DNA of 57,652 nucleotides from an uncultured Bacteriovoracaceae bacterium (lineage in GTDB: Bacteria; Bdellovibrionota; UBA2394). Position 1 is the stretch's first letter. Each line of letters starts with the position of its first letter. The stretch lies in contig CAZZLQ010000005.1 of the NCBI GenBank assembly GCA_964655245.1, positions 1-57,652 on the forward strand, read 5' to 3'. The translations under genes and the position numbers were made by a program. Under the pieces are notes generated by a model. The model ran no database searches and was not told the DNA's origin. It saw nothing but the letters and a program-made list of their open reading frames with translations. Positions 37,141 to 43,975 of the stretch are shown here, one piece after another.

Positions 37141-37866
37141 ATGGTGCGTATGTTTGCTGGATCATTCATTTTCCTGTTGGCCATCTCTCACGCCAGTTTT
37201 GCTGACGGCTGCAAGCGAGCAGTTGCTAAAGCGACTTCCTTCAAGCGCTCGCCCGAATCCATTCAATTCTGGAAAGCGATTGGAGAAAAACCTCCAGCGA
37301 CCTTTGATGAGTTGTCTGCCAAGCATCATCCTCAGTTTATCAACGGACTGCCCAGCTATGAGTCTCGGCCGGACGATATGGGATTTACGGATTGGGCCTT
37401 TGCGTTTGCGCGAGCTCACCCTCTCGATTCCAAACTCATCAATGCCGCTCGCTGGTTAGGCCAGGAAACCAAGAAAGAATTCCAGGATCTGATGCGGCGG
37501 ATTGAGTTATCTCAAGGTCAGGGAATCGAAGCGAATGGAATGGAGCTCGCGATGAGATCTCAATACTACTCTGAAATGCGCCAGGCACTTGCCGGCGAAA
37601 TCATGCCGTTTCCTGAGCAGGGGGAGGATGGACTTGAGGCATTTTTCAAACGAAAAAACGGCGGAACTTTCGTCGATCTGTATGAAGCTCACACAAGACT
37701 CTATCAGCATGAGACAGAACTCATGAAGCTCAAGGCTTCATTGCCGGAAAACTTCTCTGATATTTCTCGTCTTGAGCACGCCATTTCATTTTACAAAATT
37801 ATTATTGAAAGGATTCCGGACCATGCCAAAGCGCGGTTGAAGAAGGCGGCTCTCAATGCAAACTAA
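37141..37866 (+). CDS. Exported hypothetical protein (paralog A)
   Basis: Signal peptide ending ASFA; clear similarity to the next ORF. Confidence 0.75.
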   Translation: MVRMFAGSFIFLLAISHASFADGCKRAVAKATSFKRSPESIQFWKAIGEKPPATFDELSAKHHPQFINGLPSYESRPDDMGFTDWAFAFARAHPLDSKLINAARWLGQETKKEFQDLMRRIELSQGQGIEANGMELAMRSQYYSEMRQALAGEIMPFPEQGEDGLEAFFKRKNGGTFVDLYEAHTRLYQHETELMKLKASLPENFSDISRLEHAISFYKIIIERIPDHAKARLKKAALNAN

Positions 37867-38647
37867 CTTGAGACATCGACTCCAGATTTGCTTCCGGTTC
37901 AGCCTGGCGATTACTTTGGCACTTCCTCTATCGTCCAAGATTTTTGCTCACGACTGCCAGTGGCTTCTGACTCGAATCTCTCAGACCCATCAACCCAAGA
38001 TCGTCGAGAGATCCGACATTTCTTTGAAATTTTGGAGATCATCCACCAAGGTGAATCCTGAAACCTTTGATCAGTGGGCATCTCGATCTAAGCCTGAATA
38101 TATCAATGGACTGCCGACCTTCGAATCCAGACCGGATGCTCAGGGCTTCACAAACTGGGTGATCGCCTTTGGACGAGCGCATCGACTAAACTCAAAACTC
38201 ATCGCAGAAACTGAACGCCAACAGGCTCAAAGCTCGTGGGATTTTAAAAAGGCGTTTGAGGAGTTCAAGAAAAACCCCTCAGATGAAGTCGAAAATCATT
38301 TAGCCCTGCTCGCTTCCAAGGCTCAATACTACCGTGAAATGCAGCAGGCTCTGTCAGGCGATTTCTTTCCTTATCCTGAGCAGGGCCGAGAAGCTCTTAA
38401 TCGATTTCTTGATGAACGTTCAGGCGATCTCAAAATGGACCTCGAGGAAGCGCACATACGGCTCTGGCAAGCAGAGTCTCGGCTGACGGAGGAGATGTAT
38501 CAAAGAGAGTCGAGCCTTGTGGAAACACTGCCGCTTCTTCGAGAGATCAATTTTTACAAAGATGCCATCTCGGAGATCTCAGCGCGAATCAGTTCCCAAC
38601 AAACAAGTGAGACGTCGAGATCAATGTCCCGCAGCCGCTTGCCTTAG
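37856..38647 (+). CDS. Exported hypothetical protein (paralog B)
   Basis: Signal peptide ending KIFA; shares INGLP..ESRPD..GFT.W and QYY.EM.QAL.G...P.PEQG with paralog A. Confidence 0.75.
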   Translation: MQTNLRHRLQICFRFSLAITLALPLSSKIFAHDCQWLLTRISQTHQPKIVERSDISLKFWRSSTKVNPETFDQWASRSKPEYINGLPTFESRPDAQGFTNWVIAFGRAHRLNSKLIAETERQQAQSSWDFKKAFEEFKKNPSDEVENHLALLASKAQYYREMQQALSGDFFPYPEQGREALNRFLDERSGDLKMDLEEAHIRLWQAESRLTEEMYQRESSLVETLPLLREINFYKDAISEISARISSQQTSETSRSMSRSRLP

Positions 38648-41600
38648 GAAATCAGCGCACTTCCACCGCTTAGAAATGATCTGAGGATTCTTACTGCTTT
38701 GGATCATTTCGAGCATTTCCTCTTTTTTCTGAGGCTCTTGCTTTTGAAGCTTCTCAAAATCCTCTCTCGAAAGATGACCATCAATCAGCAGTCGAATCGC
38801 CGTCATCCTCACAAGTGCCCAGCGCGCTCTCAAGATTCTTTCGGCTTCAACCTTGCCCGCTTCCACGAGAGAGGCGATTTCTCTCTGAACGGGCTCGCTT
38901 GTGGCAATCACAACACCATCTTTGACCGGAAACTTGAGAGCCTCATCCGAAAGACCCCATGTCGTCACTGCTTCCTCTGCAAGACGTCGCGCCTGTTTTA
39001 GGTCTGATGACCAACCCGAATCTTTGCTAAAGCCTGCGAGCTGTTGCGCCATGTTTCCCGCCAAAATCCCGGCGATACGAGCCACAACCGCCTCTCGGCT
39101 GTAATAGTAGACGGGGTCATCGCTTTCATATCGAACATATCCACCATAGCCTCCTTCACCACGAATCGTGATGAAGCCAACCACGGCACCCGTAAGCTCT
39201 GGCTGATTAGCAACGGCATGTCCCGCTTCATGATAGGCAACAATCAAACTGTCATTGAGATCCGCCAATCGCTTGGGCTTTGCTTCACGAGTAATGTCCA
39301 TCGAGTAGTCTTGAACTTTTCGTTTGGGAATCTTCACATGTAATCTGAGAACCACCTCACGAGGGGTCAGATCCTTCGATGTTCTTCGAATCCGCCCGGA
39401 AAAGTTATCTTCAACATCAAGAGTCAATGTCGCTCGCTGAAAGTTCTCACGATCCATTGCATGTTCAATCAAGGCCTGGCCAACGAGATCCACCACGGCG
39501 TTTTCGGCGACCTCGCGAAGACTTCGTCCCCCTCGCGCATGCGAGAAGAAAGACTCCGTAAGACGTTCATAAAATCCATCCGCAACTTTGATGTTGTCAA
39601 ACTCATAAGCAGCCTTCAGCTGACCTAAGACTCGCTCAACTTCCTTCTTGGCCACTTGAATCTGCTCCGAATGAATCAAAGGCTTCATAAGCGCGATATT
39701 ATTTCCGATTCGACCGAGAAGAGGCTCGGGCCATCCGCTGTGTCTGAGAAGATCTTGTAGATAATCCCGACGATTCATTCGCTTCCACTCTGACAATCGC
39801 AGATCATCATTGGGAAGATTTTCAAACAACTCCTGCCCCTCATTAGAAGTCATCAAAATAAAATGTTTTCGAAGATCGTATTTATTCCCTAGGGGGCTCG
39901 TCCAAGTGCCCTCCTCAAACATGTCATAAAGACGTTTCAAAAGTTCTGAGCGGGGGGTAGCCATTGAGGGATGTCGAGGGTCCGCACCCATATTGCCAAT
40001 CTCATCTAAGATAATGACCATTCCTTCAGGAAAATCATGAAGCGCCTTTTCAAATGGAGACATGGTTTCTGAGCCTACAATGCCTCGAGGTGAGCCAAAA
40101 ATATTTGACCAATCATGTTCTGTCTTCACTTGTCCCAAACCAAACTGTCGCATTCTTTGGGAGGTTCCGTACAAGACTTGCGCCAAAGCGCGCCCCAGCT
40201 CCGTTTTGCCAATTCCCGTGGAGCCGAGAAGAAGCGCGTGAGCTGGCACAACGAGTTTGGAATTGAGGGCACGGGTTCTGACTGCTCGACTCACCACTTT
40301 GATGGCCTCAGCCTGCCCAAACACTGACTTTCCAAGCTCTTCCTCAAGACCTTGAAGCCTCGAAATAGATTGGGGATCCTGAAGGGGATTGATCTCCGTC
40401 AAACGAATCAGCAAATGATCGACAATTGTCACCTTCTGATTGGTCTTATTCGCCAGCAGAATGGACGCTTCGCCCTTCTCGCTTCGATGATCCCAAGTGG
40501 CCATCATCTCGTGATTTTCGGCTGGGCTTAACTGCAAAACGGCCTCCTGATGAAGCCTGTTGAACAAATCCATCGTCTGCTGCAAGAGGCTTCGAACGCC
40601 CTCCTCAGGCACATAATAGGTTCGAACAATCTCTTCGATAGTGGGCTCATCAATAGTGAGAGAATAGAAATACTGCTTCTTAATCTGCTGCGAGATCGAT
40701 TGGGCCAACCCTCGAACAATCGCGACGGCCCCTTCGAATGAAGGGGGAACAACCGCCACAGCACGATCAATCCGCTGAAGCTCAGCAGCCCCCCAAACCT
40801 GGGAGGTGTCATAGAGATTTTTTGATGAAGGCTTCAAAAACAAATCGCGAACTCGCTTGTCCGTAAATGTAGCAAGCCGTCGCATCAATTCATCGCGCTT
40901 AAGTGCTGTGCCCTGACCCACAGGATAGATTTCATCCGCACCGCGATTGGAGGTAAACACCACCAGGGATCGGCCAAGATAGTATGTTTGCCCATCTCCA
41001 CCTTGAAGCTTTCCGGTATCCAGCATCTCCATCAGAATCTTGATGAGATCCGGATGAGCTTTTTCGATCTCGTTGATCAAAATCACATTTCGGCCTTTGC
41101 CTCGGCCGCGCAAGAATTCAGGCAAGATACCCTGAGGGGAGTCAGCGTTGTATCGAGCCGTCCCAATCAAGGAATCAAAAACACCATTTCGATACTTTGT
41201 CGCATCAATCTCTAGGAATCGTTCGGGATCTCGAAGGACATGCTGAGCAAAAGCTTGCCCTGAAAACGTCTTTCCCGCTCCGGTTGGACCCACCGCCAAG
41301 AGCGATCGATGCTTCTTGTGTCCAACGCCCAAATTCACTTCACGCCACAGATCGATCATCGCTGAAACAAGCTGGGGCTGATCCACAACGACTTCGAGAA
41401 GCTTCTGACGACCTTCCTCATTGGCCTGAACAAAAGCTGTCGGATTTTGAGGACCGACGCCGTACATAGTCCAAGCAGCCTTATCAATATCCTCAGGCTT
41501 AACTTCCGTTTTTTTGGCTCGAGTCAAATCGGTTTTAATCTGCTCAAGGAGGCGAACACTGCGCGCAGGCTCATGAGATCCCGGATCCAAATCCGAGGAG

Positions 41601-42934
41601 ACGCTGATCACGCGATTGAGCATGGACTCGTCGAGCTTGTATCCAAACTTAAGATCAATCCACGAATGCAGCTTTCGCAACAGTTCTTCATCACGAGGCT
41701 CCTCAATTCGAATCTCCGCAAATCTCCTCCGAAGAGCGGGGTCGGAACCAAAAGCTCGTTGGTATTCCTCGGGAGTGTCCGTCGCAACAATCATGAGATC
41801 GCCTGCTGCAATATGCTTCTTCAGCATTTGCATCAAATCCACGCTACTATTGGAATGAGTTCCAAGGCCCTTCAGGCTATGAAACTCATCAAAAACGAGA
41901 ACAAGGGGAATCGATCGTGAAGCCTGAATCAGCGCATTCACACGCTTGTCAATTTCGCCCACCAGTCCCGCGCCCTGTTCGAGAGCTTCGCGAGGGACCT
42001 GCATCACTTCCCAAGTCTCAGGAAGTTTGTCGATTAATCCCTCGATGATCGTTGTCTTCCCGGTGCCACTCTGTCCGAGCAAAACAACCGACTTGGACTC
42101 CTTGCGTTTCAAAGCCTCGACGATTCGCTGAATGACTTCCTTATCTTTGTCAGTGGGAGGAAGCATATTCTTTCGATCAAAGCCATCTCGCAAATCTGGC
42201 AAGAGATCCTGCAAAAAGGCGAGGGCGTCGATCCGTGATCCTGAAGTCGTCAGCACCGCCTTTGCCGCTTTAGGCTCAAAGGTAGCCTCGAGTTCCAACC
42301 GCAGCAAATCAAGGTCTCGGCCGCCCGGAACATAAAGCATCATATGGCTCATATCCAAAACGACCTCATTCATCTGTTCGTCCTTGAATGGGACTGAGGC
42401 CACTTTGATCAGCATTTGAGACGAGGCTTCATAAAAGTAGGTTCCGAGCATATTGGGAGAAATCACACTCAGCAGAAAAAGCTGATTTCCCGTGTCTTCC
42501 AAGTGGCGAACTCGAAGTGCCTCGACCTCTGTAGGAAAAAGCGGATGGCGCAGGAGCGTTCCCCGACTCGAGATGAGTAAAGCTTCATTTTTGTCAGTGA
42601 TCGCATAGGTATAAGAGTTTGAACGATGATGAATCGGTTCAACGATTCCACGAATGAGACCTCTTTGATGCCCATTGACCCCAATGCGCTTGATCGGTCC
42701 CGTGTAGAGCACCTCCGAAGAGTTGGAAAGGGGAGAGCCCACGATGATTTGCACATCCTGACTCTGCGGAACCTGAATGAATCGAACGGCCACCTGGGAA
42801 TCCGCAAAAACAAAGGATCCCAACAGCTTTTGAGGGCTACCCCCCGGAGCATCGGAGTAGTCCGCATTGGCCTGAACGGCAAAGGAAAACAAAATTGAAA
42901 CCCACAAAAATCCCCGAACAATCAATAACTTCAC
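38621..42934 (-). CDS. Signal peptide + three ClpA/B-type AAA+ modules + FtsH-type (M41) peptidase domain
   Basis: Walker A GQSGTGKT, GPTGAGKT, GSTGIGKT; VFDEFH, DPALRRRF, INEIEKAHP, VFGQAEAI, ILMTSN; AYHEAGHA, SSDLKQA; leader ending ANA. Confidence 0.85.
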   Translation of the reverse strand: MKLLIVRGFLWVSILFSFAVQANADYSDAPGGSPQKLLGSFVFADSQVAVRFIQVPQSQDVQIIVGSPLSNSSEVLYTGPIKRIGVNGHQRGLIRGIVEPIHHRSNSYTYAITDKNEALLISSRGTLLRHPLFPTEVEALRVRHLEDTGNQLFLLSVISPNMLGTYFYEASSQMLIKVASVPFKDEQMNEVVLDMSHMMLYVPGGRDLDLLRLELEATFEPKAAKAVLTTSGSRIDALAFLQDLLPDLRDGFDRKNMLPPTDKDKEVIQRIVEALKRKESKSVVLLGQSGTGKTTIIEGLIDKLPETWEVMQVPREALEQGAGLVGEIDKRVNALIQASRSIPLVLVFDEFHSLKGLGTHSNSSVDLMQMLKKHIAAGDLMIVATDTPEEYQRAFGSDPALRRRFAEIRIEEPRDEELLRKLHSWIDLKFGYKLDESMLNRVISVSSDLDPGSHEPARSVRLLEQIKTDLTRAKKTEVKPEDIDKAAWTMYGVGPQNPTAFVQANEEGRQKLLEVVVDQPQLVSAMIDLWREVNLGVGHKKHRSLLAVGPTGAGKTFSGQAFAQHVLRDPERFLEIDATKYRNGVFDSLIGTARYNADSPQGILPEFLRGRGKGRNVILINEIEKAHPDLIKILMEMLDTGKLQGGDGQTYYLGRSLVVFTSNRGADEIYPVGQGTALKRDELMRRLATFTDKRVRDLFLKPSSKNLYDTSQVWGAAELQRIDRAVAVVPPSFEGAVAIVRGLAQSISQQIKKQYFYSLTIDEPTIEEIVRTYYVPEEGVRSLLQQTMDLFNRLHQEAVLQLSPAENHEMMATWDHRSEKGEASILLANKTNQKVTIVDHLLIRLTEINPLQDPQSISRLQGLEEELGKSVFGQAEAIKVVSRAVRTRALNSKLVVPAHALLLGSTGIGKTELGRALAQVLYGTSQRMRQFGLGQVKTEHDWSNIFGSPRGIVGSETMSPFEKALHDFPEGMVIILDEIGNMGADPRHPSMATPRSELLKRLYDMFEEGTWTSPLGNKYDLRKHFILMTSNEGQELFENLPNDDLRLSEWKRMNRRDYLQDLLRHSGWPEPLLGRIGNNIALMKPLIHSEQIQVAKKEVERVLGQLKAAYEFDNIKVADGFYERLTESFFSHARGGRSLREVAENAVVDLVGQALIEHAMDRENFQRATLTLDVEDNFSGRIRRTSKDLTPREVVLRLHVKIPKRKVQDYSMDITREAKPKRLADLNDSLIVAYHEAGHAVANQPELTGAVVGFITIRGEGGYGGYVRYESDDPVYYYSREAVVARIAGILAGNMAQQLAGFSKDSGWSSDLKQARRLAEEAVTTWGLSDEALKFPVKDGVVIATSEPVQREIASLVEAGKVEAERILRARWALVRMTAIRLLIDGHLSREDFEKLQKQEPQKKEEMLEMIQSSKNPQIISKRWKCADFLRQAAAGH

Positions 42935-43128
42935 TCCCCTGGTCCCCCTCTTTAGACCTTTTCAAAATAAGAAATCTAGGGAGCCGATGGCAAGACTTAT
43001 CAATGCACTGCGACAAAAGTTGGGGGAGGGGAAGACTAAGCTCAAGACTTTGCTTGAAATCTTTGCAGAGAGCCCGCCTCGCTCACCGTTCTAACGAGCC
43101 CAAAGAGCCGTTTAAGTGGATTCGGCCT

Positions 43129-43144: not shown

Positions 43145-43168
43145 CTTTGCAGTGAGGAGGTGGCTTTG

Positions 43169-43975
43169 GTGATCAGTCTGAGATCGATTCTTTCATCCGT
43201 TATCTGTTTGTTGGCAGGATTTGCTCCCATTGTCGCTGAAGCCTTTTCCGGAAATCTCGACTTTATGCTCAACCGATCGTCCTGCAGTGGCTGTCACAGT
43301 TCCGCAACAGCTCCCTCTCCGGCTACCACGCAGGCTCTACGAGTCAAAGATGTCGAAACGGAAAATCTCGTCACTCAATATGAACCGGGAAAGACGTATG
43401 CCATTCAGATCCTGTTTTCACCTCAGTTAGGTCTCGAAGGAAAGTACCGGGTCGCTTACTTTTTGCGCTCAAAGACAGCGAGTGGATCAGCTCTGGGGGA
43501 GTTTACTACCCCGGCAACCATCGCCACTGCGGATGGCTCTCAAACAGCTCCGGATCGAATCTACAAACCCCAATCTCATGAGGTTGCACGAGTGTTTACA
43601 TCCCCGAGTCAAATCGCCTCATCGGCTTTGACACTGTTGTGGAAAGCTCCTCAGAGCTCTGAAGCTGTACGTTTTGAGTTTGCACGAGTGGAGGCCAACA
43701 ACAACGGAGGCAACGATGCCGGTGATCGAGGATCAAGCAGTATCGAAGTCGTCACTCTCACAAGCACAGGCCTGCCCGATTCGAATGGGGATCAGTCGCC
43801 GACTGATCGAGCATCGAATTTTGATGAAAACCTCAGCGGAGGATGTGGAATCCTGAAGGCGAGTCACGCTGACAAACGGAATAACTGGTTTCAGTCTCTC
43901 TTTGTTCTCGCATTATTGATGATGATTTCTCTTCGAGGAGCCAGCAAAAAACTGAGCGATCAAGCTCGAAGCTGA
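43169..43975 (+). CDS. Exported Reeler-like domain protein with CxxCH and C-terminal GGC/TM sorting tail
   Basis: SD GAGGAGG; signal ending AEA; CSGCH; YEPGKTY, WKAP, ANNNG; SGGCG + hydrophobic helix + basic end. Confidence 0.65.
   Translation: MISLRSILSSVICLLAGFAPIVAEAFSGNLDFMLNRSSCSGCHSSATAPSPATTQALRVKDVETENLVTQYEPGKTYAIQILFSPQLGLEGKYRVAYFLRSKTASGSALGEFTTPATIATADGSQTAPDRIYKPQSHEVARVFTSPSQIASSALTLLWKAPQSSEAVRFEFARVEANNNGGNDAGDRGSSSIEVVTLTSTGLPDSNGDQSPTDRASNFDENLSGGCGILKASHADKRNNWFQSLFVLALLMMISLRGASKKLSDQARS

Follow-up and report, generated by a model that had tools for sequence, protein, structure and literature searches.

A predicted AAA+ protease with three Clp-type modules, an M41 peptidase, and a signal-peptide-like leader in an uncultured Bdellovibrionota bacterium

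To our knowledge, the AAA+ proteases of bacteria are usually presented as a closed list of cytoplasmic or cytoplasm-facing machines: ClpXP, ClpAP, ClpCP, HslUV, Lon, FtsH, and the proteasome. AAA/Hsp100 machines that work outside the cytosol of their maker, in a compartment holding ATP, include HSP101 of PTEX in Plasmodium, an exported Clp/Hsp100 ATPase that pulls proteins across a membrane, and the mitochondrial i-AAA protease Yme1. Of these two eukaryotic proteins, HSP101 has two rings and lacks a protease, Yme1 is a membrane-anchored FtsH-type enzyme, and neither is a bacterial soluble protease exported by Sec. Here, we describe a gene within a 57,652-nucleotide stretch of DNA (the window, analyzed as a whole) from an uncultured freshwater Bacteriovoracaceae bacterium of the phylum Bdellovibrionota (assembly GCA_964655245.1, contig CAZZLQ010000005.1). 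As judged from its sequence, the gene very probably encodes a fused, conserved, and catalytically intact-looking Clp-type/M41 polypeptide with a leader (Table 1).

The predicted subunit of roughly 160 kDa comprises a signal peptide, an N-domain, three AAA+ modules (D1, D2, and D3, of which D3 is again of the D2 type), and an M41 peptidase. This is the order given in a preliminary description made from the DNA alone, and it was borne out by Pfam, by PDB matches, and by an AlphaFold2 (AF2) model. Pfam placed AAA on residues 283-395 (E 1e-22), AAA_2 on two stretches (E 2e-31, best 543-670), ClpB_D2-small on 1090-1160, and Peptidase_M41 on 1228-1395 (61.1 bits; cut-off, 29.9). In a PDB sequence search, ClpB, ClpC, and Hsp104 matched three separate regions (259-485, 609-670, and 858-964), and the protein is therefore read as one D1-type and two D2-type modules. 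D1 of Thermus thermophilus ClpB (1qvr, residues 171-405) aligns to the first region, and its D2 aligns to both of the others, with ClpB residues 547-655 falling on 858-964. D2 and D3 are themselves homologues (24% identity over 258 residues, E 2e-9), and FtsH chains 4eiw and 2dhr match residues 1218-1344 (E 4.4e-10). The AF2 model of residues 262-1437, built on an alignment of 38 sequences (mean predicted local distance difference test [pLDDT] score, 84.8), has three alpha/beta-plus-helical AAA+ units and two small beta inserts, and Foldseek matches it best to protomers of ClpC, ClpA, and ClpB (E ~1e-30, TMt ~0.7). The defense-system models of PADLOC yielded no full-length match, only partial P-loop matches such as PDC-M37B on residues 900-1041.

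The motifs expected of each module could be located individually. D1 has Walker A at 287-294, Walker B at D349-E350, sensor-1 at T387, and arginine fingers at R402/R403, and its pore-loop tyrosine is replaced (GLVGE). D2 has Walker A at 549-556, sensor-1 at N663, an arginine finger at R721, and sensor-2 at R781, with Walker B reading N621-E622 through an Asp-to-Asn change. In D3, Walker A occupies 904-911, Walker B D977-E978, sensor-1 N1031, the arginine finger R1075, and sensor-2 R1137, and the pore loop reads G-I-V-G-S at 951-955. The zinc site of the M41 domain is H1235-E-A-G-H1239 with D1311, which we take to be the third ligand by alignment to the FtsH motif. The SSD region to which the preliminary description had assigned this ligand is present, and the ligand can now be set as Asp1311, the D of GWSSD.

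How does this protein relate to the described systems? As in FtsH, an M41 domain with HEXXH and a downstream Asp stands C-terminal to an AAA+ module in one chain, presumably hexameric. However, the module before M41 is of the ClpB-D2 type (AAA_2 plus ClpB_D2-small), whereas that of FtsH is a classic AAA with AAA_lid_3; there are three ATPase modules rather than one, and a single cleavable-looking leader in place of two transmembrane (TM) helices and a periplasmic domain. With the NCBIfam model FtsH_fam, the protein reaches 62.3 bits, where 600 is the cut-off. The protein is a member of peptidase family M41 and is not FtsH proper, from which it departs in the type of the adjacent AAA, in TM topology, and in equivalog score. 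Like ClpA/ClpC-ClpP and ClpB/Hsp104, it has D1 and D2 modules with shared motifs and fold and the stacked-ring plan of Hsp100 proteins; unlike them, it has a third ring, a predicted signal peptide, and Asn-Glu rather than Asp-Glu in the D2 Walker B. Its protease part is a fused metallopeptidase, whereas ClpP is a separate serine protease. With the protease fused, an IGF/IGL loop for ClpP docking would be dispensable. PF02861 (Clp_N) is absent from the precomputed Pfam lists of relatives P0002-P0038, whereas the ClpB matches carry it, and no long coiled-coil M-domain was seen in the AF2 model. The NCBIfam models of ClpV, ClpB, and ClpA gave partial matches only, at 222-247 bits against cut-offs of 885-1232. 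The protein thus shares the D1 and D2 motifs of Clp/Hsp100 class I and is not a member of ClpA/B proper, from which it departs in equivalog score and in the lack of Clp_N. The AAA_2 + FtsH-AAA + M41 fusions (P0089-P0096, P0098, and P0099) also join a Clp-D2-type module to M41 in one chain. In these, however, M41 is directly preceded by a strong classic AAA of the FtsH type (E 1e-43 to 1e-52), there are two modules, and an N-terminal hydrophobic segment is lacking; their similarity to the window protein is limited to E 1e-12 to 1e-18.

The preliminary description of a single ORF (open reading frame) for an exported unfoldase-protease held at the level of the sequence: the frame is intact, and every motif quoted there occurs in the translation (AVQANA followed by DY, GQSGTGKT, DEFH, DPALRRRF, GPTGAGKT, INEIEKAHP, GSTGIGKT, LDEIG, HEAGH, and SSD). 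Upstream, the frame runs into a stop codon (TGA at 42964-42962), so a longer N-terminus is excluded, and the GTG at 42934 is the first start. A promoter scan gave one sigma-70-like site upstream (42993-42964), and such matches are no commoner than in shuffled sequence. Could the fusion be an assembly chimera, as the preliminary description had considered? Near-identical DNA is present in 20 runs from 12 metagenome studies of freshwater, aquaculture, and wastewater, one of which may be the source, and no RNA run was listed among them. Contigs from 4 runs of 4 independent studies tile the gene with zero indels and span every domain junction; one from run X2 (38868-39620) crosses the D3/M41 junction with 0 differences. 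These bridging contigs, together with full-length relatives in many other genomes, establish that the gene is no chimera. The source genome (a 2.17-Mb assembly in 100 contigs, 96% complete) has one full-length copy. It also encodes a separate ordinary FtsH and ordinary Clp ATPases, so the triple-ring protease is not the housekeeping copy.

Conservation was assessed in 38 aligned members, 26-96% identical to the window protein. The Walker A, Walker B Asp-Glu, arginine finger, and sensor-2 Arg of D3 are present in all 38, as are HEAGH and the downstream Asp, and the sensor-1 Asn of D3 is present in 37. A canonical D1 Walker A is found in 30 members; the other eight comprise five N-terminal fragments, two misaligned sequences, and one degenerate sequence. 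The D1 Asp-Glu and double Arg are kept across members. From this alignment, the catalytic residues of the ATPases and of the protease are under strong purifying selection, and the family looks catalytically competent. The pore loops are less uniform. D3 has G-hydrophobic-hydrophobic-G-S at the position of the GYVG of ClpB, and the D2 loop reads GAPPG-hydrophobic-x-SS in most members and TAR-Y-x-x-E in the subfamily of the window protein.

The middle ring was described earlier as possibly impaired in hydrolysis on the strength of its altered Walker B. The Asp-to-Asn change proved to be family-wide: the pair is Asn-Glu in 35/38 members and Asp-Glu in three (P0026, P0031, and P0037). Impairment itself is only plausible, with the remaining motifs retained: Walker A is kept, and E622, T661, N663, R721, and R781 are invariant. 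As the alignment reads, the Asn is an ancient and selected state common to the family and not a sign of decay. Kept alongside an invariant Glu, sensor-1, arginine finger, and sensor-2, it points to a middle ring that would be specialized rather than dead.

The leader of the window protein consists of a positive n-region with K2 and R7, the h-region GFLWVSILFSFAV, and A-N-A before D, and it qualifies as a Sec signal under a heuristic based on the hydrophobic segment, the flanking charge, and the cleavage motif. The clean signal peptide noted in the preliminary description recurs throughout the family: a leader-like segment lies within the first 55 residues of 102/121 members of at least 1000 residues, with the charge pattern of an N-in/C-out segment. 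Its uncharged run has a median of 19 residues (n = 102). Net charge before the segment averages +1.9 and is at least +1 in 90/102, and net charge over the 15 residues after it averages -1.1 and is at most 0 in 84/102. No credible second hydrophobic helix was seen in any member, and P0001, the window protein, has no other 19-residue hydrophobic window. The h-regions diverge even among relatives that are 81-95% identical, while the mature N-termini align, and the segment therefore looks like a cleaved Sec signal. Together, these features make it probable that the protein is exported, and the flanking charges argue against an N-out anchor with a cytoplasmic body. Of the uncleaved anchor with cytoplasmic topology that the preliminary description had allowed for, the cytoplasmic body is thus opposed by the charge pattern, and an anchor is possible in some members. 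Cysteine depletion was also considered as an indicator of export and was rejected: the family median of 0.14% against 0.23% in ClpB-like matches is too small a gap.

A word-indexed search returned 37 relatives at 28-95% identity, all with M41 together with AAA families. The four with source names are from Bdellovibrionota or Oligoflexia bacteria, and the database labels are "AAA family ATPase" or "ClpA." When residues 1090-1437 were compared with all of 1.84 billion representatives, 172 clusters reached E<=1e-10, 71 of them E<=1e-30. Hidden Markov models built for the four modules were run on 176 retrieved proteins. The order D1-D2-D3-M41 was found in 77 and D2-D3-M41 in 30, the remainder being fragments or minor variants. 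The two-ring form has ~1170-1240 residues and also bears a leader and an N-domain (e.g., P0103, P0113, and P0114; Pfam agrees for P0113). Thus, D1 seems either to have been added to a core of D2-D3-M41 or to have been lost repeatedly. In a sample of the phylum, 39/401 genomes in 29/204 genera had a match at E<=1e-60. A scan of genome contigs with the family alignment gave no Bdellovibrionota locus among the matches listed, and its HEAGHA pattern matched ordinary FtsH throughout. A locus in a gammaproteobacterial metagenome-assembled genome (MAG), L108, matches residues 4-1137 at 22% but is split into ORFs of 659 and 820 residues. The preliminary description had allowed that the architecture might already be a described family. 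In the literature outside subscription journals that our search covered, neither this architecture nor an exported AAA+ protease of any kind was found to be described. The architecture is that of an AAA+ protease of a new build, whose sequences sit in databases under generic names.

What might such a protein do? We consider it somewhat likely that it is a self-contained, exported, ATP-dependent unfoldase-protease that is idle in the periplasm of its producer and active in prey. The leader would direct Sec export and be cleaved after Ala24, and the protein would stay idle in the ATP-free periplasm until it reached a place where ATP is present, most plausibly a killed or permeabilized prey cell (the bdelloplast), in which folded prey proteins would be degraded. 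By homology to Clp/Hsp100 proteins and FtsH, six subunits would form a stack of rings. In FtsH, the M41 ring nucleates assembly without nucleotide, and the M41 ring could likewise nucleate this stack. The N-domain would engage a substrate or an adaptor, D1 and D3 would hydrolyze ATP, and the pore loops of D3, and in most members those of D2, would thread the unfolded chain into the M41 chamber for cleavage. The Asn-Glu middle ring may bind ATP and hydrolyze it slowly, or serve as a structural tier that holds the stack together. The Gram-negative periplasm has no ATP supply, and three conserved ATPase rings therefore make no sense there. The earlier proposal of an ATP-containing compartment outside the producer is favored by the conservation of ATPase motifs on a leader-bearing protein and by other leader-bearing ATPases in the genome (see below), and the target compartment itself is a matter of interpretation. 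Action on the cytoplasmic contents of prey by proteins with Sec leaders has precedent in the phylum, since a fluorescence study reported secretion into the bdelloplast for DNases of Bdellovibrio bacteriovorus that have predicted signal peptides (PMC7925074).

An envelope protease of the producer itself would rest on the same sequence evidence for export. Soluble or signal-anchored, it would act in its own periplasm like an inverted FtsH or i-AAA, and the median run of 19 residues, with TM-like hydrophobicity over 19 residues in some members, makes an anchor possible in those. We regard this as unlikely: it leaves three ATPase motif sets under strong selection in a compartment without ATP, the h-regions of P0003, P0009, P0015, P0022, P0027, and P0038 are too short to span a membrane, none of these members reaching the threshold in any 19-residue window, and A-x-A sites followed by acidic residues are common in the family. 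A cytoplasmic AAA+ protease, with the segment as an N-out tether or not used for export at all, would be a membrane-proximal alternative to FtsH or ClpAP and would have ATP at hand with no special assumption. The related AAA_2 + FtsH-AAA + M41 fusions of Clostridia, Planctomycetes, and Omnitrophica, which lack a hydrophobic N-terminus, fit with such a location. Yet a tether of this kind would violate the positive-inside rule (+1.9 before and -1.1 after the segment), the segment is kept in 102/121 members while its sequence drifts, and ordinary FtsH and Clp ATPases are already encoded in the genome, which together make a cytoplasmic protease quite improbable. Least probable of all, in our judgment, is a motor for translocation or extraction across a prey or vacuolar membrane, with M41 clipping what is pulled. 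PTEX HSP101 chains 6e11 and 6e10 are among the PDB sequence matches (E ~1.5e-31), and three rings suggest a high pulling capacity. The M41 catalytic residues, however, are invariant in 38/38 members, unlike those of the protease-dead FtsHi motors, which speaks for proteolysis as central to the function, and neighborhood comparison revealed no conserved membrane-pore partner beside the gene.

Several observations weigh against an exported protease that acts in prey. The source is an uncultured MAG, and predation is assumed from its phylum. Signal peptides were called by the heuristic and not by a trained predictor, and the segment is missing in 19/121 long members, most of which resemble truncated or mis-started calls that begin inside the leader or D1. 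The canonical Tyr is missing from the D1 pore loop, and the D2 pore loop is altered in the closest subfamily. A subunit of ~160 kDa must cross the outer membrane to reach prey ATP, which may be short-lived after killing. No match to the ATP/ADP translocase PF03219 was found in the source genome, and the control likewise matched in no genome. Finally, the family is patchy (1/100 genomes of the best-sampled family, f10, and 2/13 in the window's own family), so the protease is dispensable for the lifestyle. Action on prey proteins in the bdelloplast at the expense of prey ATP is the more doubtful step of the exported-protease reading, one that could well be true and to which we do not quite give the better chance.

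The AF2 model of the N-domain (pLDDT 80.8) consists mostly of strands. Foldseek found no match to it in PDB at E<=1e-3, and the best VIA match, to propeller-like blades, had a Z score of 7.3, inside the tool's stated noise band. Other members have longer, unrelated N-regions, and N-domains are thus variable and swapped across the family. At the other end, the window protein has exactly one Cys, C1426, 12 residues from the C terminus. Among the 121 long members, 118 have a Cys within 40 residues of the C terminus (median distance, 11), where the surrounding sequence reads C-x-x-[LFIA]-[LFY], and in 63/118 it is the only Cys after residue 40. The tail is of low confidence in the AF2 model (fragment 1153-1170, pLDDT under 50). 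Such a lone conserved Cys, in a tail that follows a zinc protease, might form a disulfide between subunits or act as a zinc-directed regulatory latch.

One member points to a possible associate. Residues 29-422 of P0019 (2040 residues) are homologous to a secreted protein of ~450-490 residues (36% identity, E 6e-68) whose gene lies immediately downstream of the protease gene, in the same orientation, in five other loci (L016, L022, L023, L024, and L028). This neighbor family is tied to the protease by its fusion to the protease N-terminus in P0019. Its GG...D-x-D pattern, read by eye, resembles that of nucleotidyltransferases of the Pol-beta type; Pfam and PDB sequence searches gave nothing, and no homologue was found in the window's genome. 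Several of these neighbors carry C[AR]DLL directly after the leader, echoing the CADFL of the protease C terminus.

In the window, the protease gene stands alone, divergent from the gene for a 271-residue secreted protein and convergent with two tandem paralogous genes for secreted proteins of 245 and 263 residues; further neighbors encode YebC, a RoxA-like cytochrome c, a fatty-acid desaturase, and an aldehyde dehydrogenase. The small secreted pair has the motifs LPxYESRP, QYYxEM, and EAHxRL and, in the 7/7 homologues found, an invariant Cys 2-4 residues past the predicted cleavage site. The pair adjoins the protease in a sister genome as well (G096) and possibly represents partners or inhibitors of secreted metalloproteases. 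Tight co-occurrence with the protease was considered and rejected, and the link is weak: genome G019 has the pair and no protease match at 1e-60, and G082 has two protease copies, the pair not being found with this query. A complex prediction with the M41 domain, the tail, the 263-residue protein, and Zn gave a median score of 0.17 against a mark of 0.32, which speaks neither for nor against such a complex, and an ESM Atlas search for the small neighbor gave no usable match. The Cys contexts of the pair (HDCQWLL and QCDDLL) resemble the protease tail. In G019, an ORF of >618 residues with HELIH (L119, G019:C135, 1895-3748, plus strand) adjoins the pair and may encode a different secreted zinc protease. 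The 271-residue protein ends in GGCG, a hydrophobic helix, and basic residues, resembling a C-terminal sorting signal, and its divergent arrangement with the protease is repeated in the sister genome (L009).

Other leader-bearing ATPases were sought in a crude scan that covered the source genome only, so the pattern is a lead and not a count. Of 1845 ORFs, 446 were leader-like. A Walker A motif was present in nine of the 446, and six of those were plainly membrane proteins on visual inspection, leaving the protease and two further candidates. The first, on contig C11, combines a Clp-D1-like P-loop module with a coiled region and a classic AAA module; across its three close homologues, the leader is divergent and the mature SGDEKCNLTL is conserved, and P0240 has a single Cys. 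The second, a PhoH2-type protein on contig C16, looks PIN-like at its start when read by eye, and a Cys follows shortly after the leader (SPKKCRKAIA). Within the window, a 447-residue ORF has a hydrophobic N-terminal segment followed by CPELL; it may encode a sigma-like protein that is exported or tethered to the membrane, or its start may be mis-called. Predatory Bdellovibrionota might export sets of cytoplasmic-type machines that run on the ATP of the victim (the protease foremost, the double-AAA protein, the PIN-PhoH2 helicase, and perhaps the sigma-like protein), with the Cys motif of the protease tail and of the neighbors' mature N-termini as a shared latch or docking element; we put this forward tentatively and hold it to be rather doubtful.

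Table 1. Coordinates of the protease gene, its predicted domains, neighboring genes, and other leader-bearing ORFs (positions in the window unless a contig is named)
Feature	Position	Strand	Basis or remark
Whole protease gene	38621..42934	-	1437 codons + stop, GTG start; single intact ORF
Shine-Dalgarno-like GAGGGGGA	42943..42950	-	8 nucleotides upstream of GTG; read from sequence
Predicted signal peptide, residues 1-24 (MKLLIVR / GFLWVSILFSFAV / QANA, then DY)	42863..42934	-	n, h, and c regions + A-x-A
N-domain, residues 25-255, beta-rich, particular to closest subfamily	42170..42862	-	AF2
D1, ClpA/B-type first AAA+ module, residues 256-520	41375..42169	-	Pfam AAA; ClpB 1qvr alignment
D2, ClpB-D2-type module, residues 521-808	40511..41374	-	Pfam AAA_2
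D2-D3 beta-strand insert + linker, residues 809-855	40370..40510	-	AF2: three strands, residues 809-843 (fragment 548-582)
D3, second ClpB-D2-type module, residues 856-1168	39431..40369	-	ClpB 1qvr alignment; ClpB_D2-small
Beta-rich linker, D3 small domain to peptidase, residues 1169-1217	39284..39430	-	AF2 strands ~1169-1213 (fragment 908-952)
Peptidase M41 domain, residues 1218-1400	38735..39283	-	Pfam; FtsH chains
C-terminal tail, residues 1401-1437, with C1426 (codon 38657-38659) in KRWKCADFL	38624..38734	-	
Tandem paralogous secreted proteins, 245 + 263 residues	37129-37866, 37856-38647	+	No Pfam or NCBIfam family
271-residue secreted protein, divergent from protease	43160-43975	+	Choice-of-anchor V domain 35.7 bits, below cut-off 42
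Sigma-70-like ORF, 447 residues	32451-33794	+	Partial RpoD/RpoS-region matches, E 1e-8 to 1e-11
Leader-bearing double-AAA protein, 751-760 residues	G000 contig C11:14382-16664 (L124:1028-3283)		Pfam confirms
Leader-like PhoH2-type protein, 561 residues	G000 contig C16:11788-13473 (L125:1001-2686)		PhoH2-type RNA helicase match 146 bits, below equivalog cut-off

The family adds a new build to the AAA+ proteases, in which three Hsp100-type rings are grafted onto an M41 peptidase, and its conserved Asn-Glu middle ring is a natural system for studying the division of labor among stacked AAA+ tiers. If the leader works as read, this would be the first Sec-exported ATP-dependent protease. If both export and action on prey are true, the departure from known AAA+ proteases would be more radical still. 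A working leader would also make it testable how predators dismantle the folded proteins of their prey and whether ATP dependence can act as the compartment switch of a secreted enzyme.

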